From positions 1-34,045 of the forward strand of contig CAYMPD010000013.1 in NCBI GenBank assembly GCA_964392445.1: 34,045 nucleotides of DNA. The letters run 5' to 3'. The first letter of the stretch is position 1, and the number at the start of each line of letters is the position of its first letter. This document shows, in pieces, positions 14,540 through 15,415 of the stretch. The stretch is from an uncultured archaeon. GTDB taxonomy: Archaea > Aenigmatarchaeota > Aenigmatarchaeia > CG10238-14. Under the pieces are notes generated by a model. That model was not told where the DNA came from and ran no database searches. It saw nothing but the letters and a program-made list of their open reading frames with translations. A program made the translations under genes and the position numbers.

Positions 14540-15415
14540 ATGGTCCCAAATTTTTCATATTATGATATTAAAAGAAAGGTAAAAATCCCGGAATTTAACG
14601 AAAAACTAGCGGAATTTTGGGGTATATTATCGGGTGATGGATTTCTAACTAAAATAGGGAAAGTTCATAGATTAGGGGTTTGCTTTCACTTGAAAGATGA
14701 TATTCACTATTCGAGGTATGTTAAGTTGCTTATCAAAAACTTATTTAACATAGAACCGACCGTATCAATTAAGAAAAAAGAAACTATACTATATCTATTA
14801 GTACATTCAAGAGGTATTACAGATTTTATCAGTGAAAATAATTTTCCAGTAGGAATTAAGAAGGATAAATTAGAAATCCCAAAATGGATAGCTAATAATA
14901 AAAAATTTGTTAAGAGGTATTTAAGAGGTTTGATAGATACTGACGGTTGCTTATTTTACGCGAAGAGAGGAACTTATAAAGTCAATAAATATCCAGTAAT
15001 AGAAATAAAAATGCACGACAGAAGTTTCATTAAAAATATCGGATCGATAATTAATAATTTAGGATTTAAAATCGTAAGGCGAAAATATAAAATTCAACTA
15101 AACGGAAAACAAAATCTCAATAAATGGTTAGATTTAATTGGTTTTAAAAATATAAAACACATAACTAGATATTTAATATGGAAAAAATATGGGTTTTGTC
15201 CACCTGGAACAGATCTAAAAGAAAGATTAAATTTATTAAGCCGAGGGTTCGCCGAGGTTCCAAAAGGGCTCGAAGGCAGAACGGCTATGCAACCGATCTC
15301 CAAAAGAGAGTTGAAGCTGCAGAACTGGTATTTAAGCCAAGTTGCTGATACCGGTAGAAATGGGTTCGACTCCCATCCTCGGCTTGATTTTTCTAAAAGA
15401 GGTGAGTTTGAATGA
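14540..15415 (+). CDS. Free-standing double-motif LAGLIDADG endonuclease-like protein
   Basis: LAEFWGILSGDG and YLRGLIDTDG motifs. The last ~54 codons are encoded by the tRNA-Cys gene and its trailer. Confidence 0.88.
   Translation: MVPNFSYYDIKRKVKIPEFNEKLAEFWGILSGDGFLTKIGKVHRLGVCFHLKDDIHYSRYVKLLIKNLFNIEPTVSIKKKETILYLLVHSRGITDFISENNFPVGIKKDKLEIPKWIANNKKFVKRYLRGLIDTDGCLFYAKRGTYKVNKYPVIEIKMHDRSFIKNIGSIINNLGFKIVRRKYKIQLNGKQNLNKWLDLIGFKNIKHITRYLIWKKYGFCPPGTDLKERLNLLSRGFAEVPKGLEGRTAMQPISKRELKLQNWYLSQVADTGRNGFDSHPRLDFSKRGEFE
15251..15384 (+). tRNA. tRNA-Cys(GCA) with three introns (15259-15274, 15296-15315, 15323-15349)
   Basis: Exon join gives a 71-nt cloverleaf: acceptor GCCGAGG/CCTCGGC, D stem GCA/TGC, anticodon arm ACCGG-CTGCAGA-CCGGT, T arm ATGGG-TTCGACT-CCCAT, U73 discriminator. 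Introns 1 and 2 have strict bulge-helix-bulge (BHB) motifs; intron 3 has a relaxed one. Adjacent to cysK and cysS. Confidence 0.93.

Follow-up and report, generated by a model that had tools for sequence, protein, structure and literature searches.

The window, the whole 34,045-nucleotide stretch of DNA analysed here, comes from the MAG of an uncultured member of Candidatus Aenigmatarchaeota (DPANN), which has 1.2 Mb in 54 contigs, a GC content of 34.5% and an estimated completeness of 94.9%. The central feature of the locus is a tRNA-Cys(GCA) gene interrupted by three inserts of 16, 20 and 27 nt. The gene is located in a cysteine-related neighbourhood, with a cysK-like gene and the gene for cysteinyl-tRNA synthetase, cysS, downstream of it, and a free-standing LAGLIDADG ORF on its 5' side (Table 1).

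Table 1. Positions of the features at the tRNA-Cys locus and of related genes elsewhere in the genome; positions refer to the window unless a contig (C) is given.
Feature	Position	Strand	Description
tRNA-Cys(GCA) gene	15251-15384	+	interrupted by three inserts
Exon 1	15251-15258	+	8 nt; positions 1-8: 5' strand of the acceptor stem (GCCGAGG) and U8
Intron 1	15259-15274	+	16 nt; position 8/9; strict hBHBh'; central helix uses acceptor nucleotides 3-6
Exon 2	15275-15295	+	21 nt; positions 9-30: D arm and 5' strand of the anticodon stem
Intron 2	15296-15315	+	20 nt; position 30/31; HBh' (central CAAC/GTTG, inner TCTC/GAGA, outer 1 bp); covariation across G007, G018 and G006
Exon 3	15316-15322	+	7 nt; positions 31-37; contains the anticodon GCA
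Intron 3	15323-15349	+	27 nt; canonical position 37/38; relaxed BHB, outer helix complete only once intron 2 is out
Exon 4	15350-15384	+	35 nt; positions 38-73: 3' strand of the anticodon stem, variable loop, T arm, 3' strand of the acceptor stem, discriminator U73
Near-duplicate of the exon 1/intron 1 junction	15240-15250	+	11 nt, GCCGAGGGTTC; alternative strict BHB 5' site giving G8
Free-standing LAGLIDADG ORF	14540-15415	+	291 codons; PF14528; motifs ILSGDG and LIDTDG
Homolog of the promoter-proximal block found immediately next to tRNA-Cys in relatives of the same genus	14405-14487	+	now ~760 bp upstream
cysK-like PLP enzyme gene	15431-16324	+	start uncertain
cysS, cysteinyl-tRNA synthetase gene	16336-17733	+	
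Micro-ORF sites	14386-14427, 15412-15441		also at L269, L240, L274, L275, L272, L273, L279 and L284
Archaeal SRP RNA	18969-19243	-	112 bits; ordinary
EndA gene	C6:35393-35935		180 aa; PF01974 and PF02778; sole EndA-like frame in the genome
tRNA-Phe(GAA) gene	C6:35998-36125	same as EndA	two introns
Second free-standing LAGLIDADG ORF	G000:C3:42816-43620		233 aa (L235, L241)

When the four exons are joined, the resulting 71-nt molecule is called tRNA-Cys(GCA) by ARAGORN. Without the inserts, the cloverleaf is canonical and the anticodon loop regular, as in multiple-intron BHB tRNA genes, and all four stems of the spliced tRNA are intact, with an acceptor stem of 7 bp (GCCGAGG/CCTCGGC), anticodon and T stems of 5 bp each, and U73 as the discriminator. 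CysRS recognises its tRNA mainly by U73 and the GCA anticodon. Since position 17 is missing from the D loop, the inserts fall at Sprinzl positions 8/9, 30/31 and 37/38. The original prediction, that this is a triple-intron tRNA-Cys which standard scanners may miss, was borne out on both counts: the product is recognised once spliced, and the unspliced tRNA-Cys was called neither by ARAGORN, in default or intron mode (-i), nor by the Rfam tRNA model, at the gathering threshold or at E<=10. Because gene finders miss the gene, the genome would be annotated without a tRNA-Cys, and such false absences matter in DPANN archaea, in which a missing gene is taken as a sign of host dependence.

To place the three inserts in context, we compared the gene with its orthologs. 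tRNA-Cys was resolved in 18 other genomes of the order, in most of which it lies directly upstream of cysS. Some of these genes have no intron (G001, G004, G014, G068 and G072) and some have only the 37/38 intron (G009, G010, G011, G013, G020, G048 and G080). Introns at 30/31 and 37/38 were found in G007 and G018, at about 21/22 and 37/38 in G003, which belongs to the same genus as the window, at about 27-29 only in G067, and at 30/31, 37/38 and about 48/49 in G006. The combination of 8/9, 30/31 and 37/38 was observed in the window only. Orthologs without intron 1 or intron 2 are joined exactly at the predicted junctions: exon 1, GCCGAGGT, runs straight into GGCAG with no insert between them, as in G011, and AACCG is followed directly by GCTGCAG in G003. 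Intron 2 varies in a compensatory manner, both in its inner helix, which is TCTC/GAGA, TTGCC/GGCAA or TTGCT/AGCAA, and in its central helix, which in G006 is changed on both sides from CAAC/GTTG to CGAC/GTCG. These exact junctions, together with the covariation of intron 2, establish the inserts as introns and the cuts as correctly placed, in full agreement with the boundaries first proposed. Colinearity and covariation are thus both seen at this locus, with intron 1 being known beyond the window only from inferred peptide tails (see below). A search of DNA across the whole family added no closer relative.

Box C-like (CUGAUGA, UGAUGA) and box D-like (CUGA) elements occur in the canonical introns of most orthologs, which are 30-32 nt long (L006, L013, L002, L005, L003 and L237); they could be a kink-turn or guide element. 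Intron 3 of the window has lost the middle part of this box C/D-like intron.

We examined the exon-intron boundaries with a BHB scanner that takes a 4-bp central helix with one 3-nt bulge on either side, plus outer and inner helices; by the BHB rule, the two 3-nt bulges are 4 bp apart and the cut falls after the second nucleotide of the bulge. Intron 1 has a strict hBHBh' motif, with the GC/GC and central helices and the bulges of the original prediction: the central helix CGAG/CTCG is paired at 4/4 positions, the outer helix GC/GC and the inner helix CC/GG have 2 bp each, and the bulges are GT-T and AA-G (hyphens mark the cuts). For intron 2, the proposed central helix CAAC/GTTG, the bulges CG-A and AA-G and the TCTC/GAGA hairpin were all recovered, whereas the description of this motif as a strict BHB did not hold, as the outer helix has only 1 bp; the motif is HBh', and energy minimisation of the first 70 nt yields this fold. 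Intron 3 fails the BHB criteria in the primary transcript, where its outer helix has 1 bp and the anticodon stem is split by intron 2. After removal of intron 2 the criteria are passed, with an outer helix of 5 bp and 3/4 central pairs (a U33.U mismatch), so that the relaxed motif and the dependence of its flanking helix on the removal of intron 2 are as anticipated. Every exon-intron boundary lies within a BHB or an accepted relaxed form.

Such motifs are common, and the 1.2 Mb genome contains about 1 million relaxed or strict BHB-like candidates. The canonical BHB-1 has a folding energy of -2.9 kcal/mol, versus a minimum of -6.6 for the 27-mer, with z-scores near 0, and the minimum-energy structure of the full precursor retains the acceptor stem instead of the BHBs. 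Since BHB-like motifs are frequent by chance and the folding energies are unremarkable, the motifs alone prove nothing; chance is excluded because the spliced product equals the intron-free orthologs base for base at the junctions, and not by motif counts. The generic BHB candidates were too many to be used unanchored, and the T arm and acceptor stem therefore served as the anchor. When all combinations of one to three BHB candidates were taken out of the acceptor-to-acceptor interval starting at 15251, the three-intron model described above was the only 71-nt tRNA-Cys solution.

On the expression, cleavage and splicing order of tRNA-Cys, we infer the following. A precursor of at least 134 nt would be transcribed, EndA would cut it at the three BHB motifs, and RtcB would join the four exons into the 71-nt tRNA. 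Intron 1 would be presented in a local hairpin formed by transcript nucleotides 1-27, in which the acceptor nucleotides 3-6 pair with the 3' part of the intron. As this BHB rivals the acceptor stem, the most plausible time of cutting is the earliest, ahead of the synthesis of the 3' strand. Intron 2 would lie in a local HBh' hairpin that borrows positions 25-28. Positions 27-28 are needed by both the BHB of intron 2 and the outer helix of intron 3, and the two full motifs are therefore mutually exclusive. Since intron 3 gains its flanking anticodon stem only without intron 2, intron 2 is probably excised before intron 3, an order that is suggested on structural grounds. Ordered removal of closely spaced introns is a concept that has already been described (PMC8450103).

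It is also conceivable, though less likely than not, that the three introns are cut independently and in any order, with an L3-bearing EndA accepting HBh' without an outer helix, in which case no order would be obligatory. Consistent with this, the central and inner helices of intron 3 are present in the primary transcript, and relaxed motifs are cut by (αβ)2 and ε2 enzymes (PMC3239211; PMC5829648). The mutual exclusion at positions 27-28 argues for an order, however, and the acceptance of HBh' by an α4+L3 enzyme is putative.

Both enzymes of the proposed ordered pathway are encoded in the genome, with RtcB on contig C23, which provides a splicing endonuclease and an RtcB-type ligase. EndA aligns over its full length to the α4 enzyme of M. 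jannaschii (1A79). An insert of 6 aa (KKGPKAAH) lies between its catalytic Tyr and His and aligns without gaps to the α loop of N. equitans (3IEY). A single subunit of ~180 aa that has both an N and a C domain, the latter with an insert, and that is not accompanied by a β subunit fits, at the level of sequence, an α4-like EndA with the DPANN 'L3' insert. The L3 loop has been reported from α4 EndAs in several DPANN lineages, which also have a larger number of disrupted tRNA genes, and undetected disrupted tRNAs remain in those lineages (Kaneta et al. 2018, PMC5829648). Our locus lends support to this published association between disrupted tRNA genes and an additional loop in a simple α4 EndA. 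A tRNA-Phe(GAA) gene with two introns is located ~60 nt from the EndA gene, in the same orientation.

Another intact tRNA-Cys elsewhere would have counted against the original prediction; no second tRNA-Cys was found in the 94.9%-complete genome by ARAGORN, RF00005, the scan anchored on T arm and acceptor, or BLAST of the spliced product. With a probability of about 0.88, we consider the interrupted gene to be a functional tRNA-Cys(GCA) gene, the only one found, which is spliced by EndA and RtcB at three BHB motifs. We regard it as very unlikely that the locus is instead a decaying pseudogene, damaged by the endonuclease and by small insertions, with a working tRNA-Cys in the unassembled 5%. 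The genome is 94.9% complete in 54 contigs, which leaves about 5% missing, the old promoter has been displaced by ~760 bp with none directly upstream of tRNA-Cys, and chance BHB-like motifs are common, BHB-1 being without folding support. A decaying gene is nevertheless hard to reconcile with the observation that removal of all three inserts restores an ortholog-identical tRNA with four intact stems. Moreover, the same three-insert arrangement is kept in an endonuclease-linked metagenomic allele from another contig, which is 90% identical, introns 2 and 3 are common to other genera, intron 2 covaries, and no other copy of tRNA-Cys was found.

At the exon 1/intron 1 junction, window positions 15240-15261 consist of a tandem near-duplicate, GCCGAGGGTTC followed by GCCGAGGTTCC, and the same 3' site is usable by the upstream copy. 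A real gene with the upstream GCCGAGG (15240-15247) as its 5' exon, a 27-nt intron 1 (15248-15274) and a tRNA with G8 is highly improbable: although the BHB of the upstream copy is equally strict in the scanner (central 4/4, outer 2, inner 2), its product is also called tRNA-Cys by ARAGORN, and a TAA lies immediately before it (compare contig C3, where the stop codon of an endonuclease abuts G1 of tRNA-Leu), this TAA is out of frame with the endonuclease ORF, T is present at position 8 in 18/18 orthologs, and U8 is nearly universal in tRNAs.

The endonuclease ORF contains two LAGLIDADG motifs in one chain, is located outside any intron or intein, and shows presence and absence at a precise site, which are the features of free-standing enzymes of this family. 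Its homology ends at about 15240, some 10 nt before the tRNA; there is no stop codon there, and the frame runs on through the tRNA to a TGA at 15413-15415, a passage that is by chance of frame. Window positions 12426-14483 are colinear with G001, a genome of the same genus, as far as the last base ahead of its tRNA-Cys, and homology is next seen at exon 4. G001 and G004 lack the endonuclease gene at the syntenic position, where the flanks are colinear. The colinear flanks and the endonuclease-free genomes indicate that the endonuclease gene sits between the ancestral promoter-proximal block and the tRNA. It appears to have been inserted between the old promoter and tRNA-Cys, and co-transcription from the old promoter may be possible. 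A giant intron holding the endonuclease ORF was considered and rejected, as there is no 5' exon upstream of the ORF. CysRS is 78% identical to that of G004 and 41% to that of G011; the mature tRNA is 93% identical to that of G011 and 80-82% to those of G001 and G004. The tRNA-Cys allele is thus suggestive of incongruence with its neighbours, in a comparison that covers 71 nt only.

Homologs of the endonuclease are found at tRNA-Cys in other genomes as well. A homolog with 52-54% identity overlaps the start of tRNA-Cys upstream of cysS in G122 and G044, and in G264 a homolog is located after tRNA-Cys. In two independent metagenomic homologs, 90% and 79% identical, the run-on tails read as exon 1, a 16-nt insert and exon 2, the 8/9 intron in these two alleles being deduced from the peptide tails. 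The tail of the 90% homolog includes all three introns. In the 79% homolog, three codons of the 16-nt insert at 8/9 are changed, and one of the changes necessarily disrupts a pair of the central helix: a change of L to I in its tail alters the first base of the intron 1 central-helix strand, and the strict BHB is not conserved there. In the ~50% homologs, exon 1 is joined directly to exon 2. The presence of the 8/9 intron in the 90% and 79% homologs and its absence from the ~50% homologs indicate that it arose inside the endonuclease-linked lineage and is not needed for docking. Non-canonical introns in the 5' half were observed in 7/7 docked versus 5/18 undocked alleles (Fisher p ~0.002, a value overstated by the kinship of the alleles). 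More distant endonuclease homologs were located within ~100 nt of intron-bearing tRNAs in 5/9 loci examined.

We tentatively raise the idea, rather unlikely as it stands, that the endonuclease and the odd introns form one evolutionary unit, in which a tRNA-Cys-specific lineage of free-standing LAGLIDADG genes would move between Aenigmatarchaeota together with the adjoining 5' half of the tRNA gene, and introns such as that at 8/9 would arise or persist by breaking the DNA target of the enzyme (self-immunity or collaborative homing). If true, such an endonuclease-intron unit would explain in concrete terms how non-canonical tRNA introns are gained and how they spread. Free-standing homing endonucleases near their targets include those of the phage T4 Seg/Mob type and F-CphI, which lies beside the psbA intron. 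As in those systems, the endonuclease gene here is outside an intron or intein, differs in presence between close relatives at a precise site, and is next to an intron-bearing gene. Unlike them, it has an archaeal host and a tRNA gene as its putative target, and the introns are of the BHB type and not group I introns.

Two further settings of related ORFs were observed. At L292 and L293 (in G178 and G175), homologs with 38-42% identity terminate at the 3' end of a tRNA-like gene that is encoded on the other strand and whose two ends are ~190 nt apart; this gene may have a very long intron. On contig C3, the TAA of the second free-standing LAGLIDADG ORF abuts G1 of tRNA-Leu(TAG). The 3' part of this tRNA-Leu matches same-genus G001 at 53/53 positions, and the 5' part matches G001 at 25/33 and G010 at 32/33, so that on sequence comparison the gene looks chimeric, with a seam at the 30/31 intron. 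A strict link of the 29/30-30/31 introns of tRNA-Leu(TAG) to an adjacent endonuclease was rejected, as G011 and G017 have such introns without an endonuclease.

The 8/9 intron is present in 1/19 tRNA-Cys genes of the order, counting the window and the 18 others. The positions listed in a review are 3/4, 20/21, 22/23, 25/26, 29/30, 30/31, 45/46, 53/54, 56/57, 59/60 'etc.' (PMC4090602); 8/9 is absent from this open-ended list, and the reported site closest to the 5' end is 3/4. These findings agree with the expectation that 8/9 is uncommon, and it is probably a new intron site. A metagenome pattern scan for any insert at 8/9 found no tRNA among the matches listed, which were chance matches in GC-rich DNA. 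Derivation of intron 1 from intron 2 by transposition was considered and not established, the shared CCAAAAG and terminal GAA being too short to judge. Other split tRNAs in the same genome are Val(TAC), with two introns, Asp, Phe, and Leu(TAG), the last with its intron at 30/31; relatives have a tRNA-Gln with an intron at 10/11 and an apparent three-intron tRNA-Ile.

BHB tRNAs with multiple introns, up to three, are already known (PMC4033280, PMC8450103). The precedent of multi-intron tRNAs drawn in the original prediction stands; the lineage is Aenigmatarchaeota, neither of the two groups named there (Thermoproteales and ARMAN-type archaea). Our literature search found no paper treating tRNA introns of Aenigmatarchaeota. 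In Thermoproteales, multiple-intron tRNAs have been described, for example, in Pyrobaculum calidifontis (Sugahara et al. 2008, as cited in PMC4033280 and PMC8450103). As there, the introns in the window are closely spaced, one of them having probably to leave before the next motif can form, and the gene is missed by standard scanners. The enzymes differ, with an (αβ)2 EndA carrying a Crenarchaea-specific loop in Thermoproteales and an α4-like EndA with an L3 loop in the DPANN archaeon studied here. ARMAN-2 (Micrarchaeum), whose pre-tRNA-Cys(GCA) has a 59/60 intron (Fujishima et al. 2011, PMC3239211), is likewise a DPANN archaeon with many non-canonical or multiple tRNA introns, including in tRNA-Cys, and with an EndA insert linked to intron diversity. 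Its EndA, however, is a three-unit ε2 enzyme and its tRNA-Cys has one intron in the T loop, whereas all three introns in the window are in the 5' half. In tRNA-Thr(GGU) of Caldiarchaeum subterraneum, an ORF was inserted upstream and a new intron is found in the 5' part of the tRNA (Sugahara et al. 2012, PMC3293823). The window resembles this case in having a same-strand ORF immediately upstream and an extra intron in the 5' part (24/25 there, 8/9 here). The two cases differ in that the Caldiarchaeum ORF encodes a putative recombinase and has an orphan 5' tRNA fragment upstream, whereas the ORF here encodes a LAGLIDADG protein; no orphan tRNA fragment was found upstream of the endonuclease ORF in the window, and only the 11-nt near-duplicate is present downstream.

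The locus extends three-intron tRNAs, so far found mainly in Thermoproteales, to Aenigmatarchaeota, and 8/9 adds an intron site at which the acceptor stem is used to build the splicing motif. A syntenic gene whose introns number from 0 to 3, spread over six or more sites, also offers a clean natural series for the study of intron gain and loss.

Downstream of the tRNA, the cysK-like gene lacks a clear start codon. In the window, the GTG frame that serves in G001 is interrupted by a TAG (15425-15427), and initiation at the following ATG in frame (15485) would leave out the conserved segment ELIGNTPLV at the N-terminus. Also conserved is a micro-ORF, 8-20 codons long and built around the core G-E-(L/Y/R/S)-(V/L/F)-C; MVGQMAGELVCKV and MTGELVCQG, each followed by a stop codon, are examples. 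It is located ~80-180 nt upstream of tRNA-Cys in 8 genomes and also before the cysK-like gene in 4, often with an AGGTG-type ribosome-binding site. The micro-ORF is a candidate for a cysteine-sensing leader peptide of the tRNA-Cys/cysK/cysS cluster.
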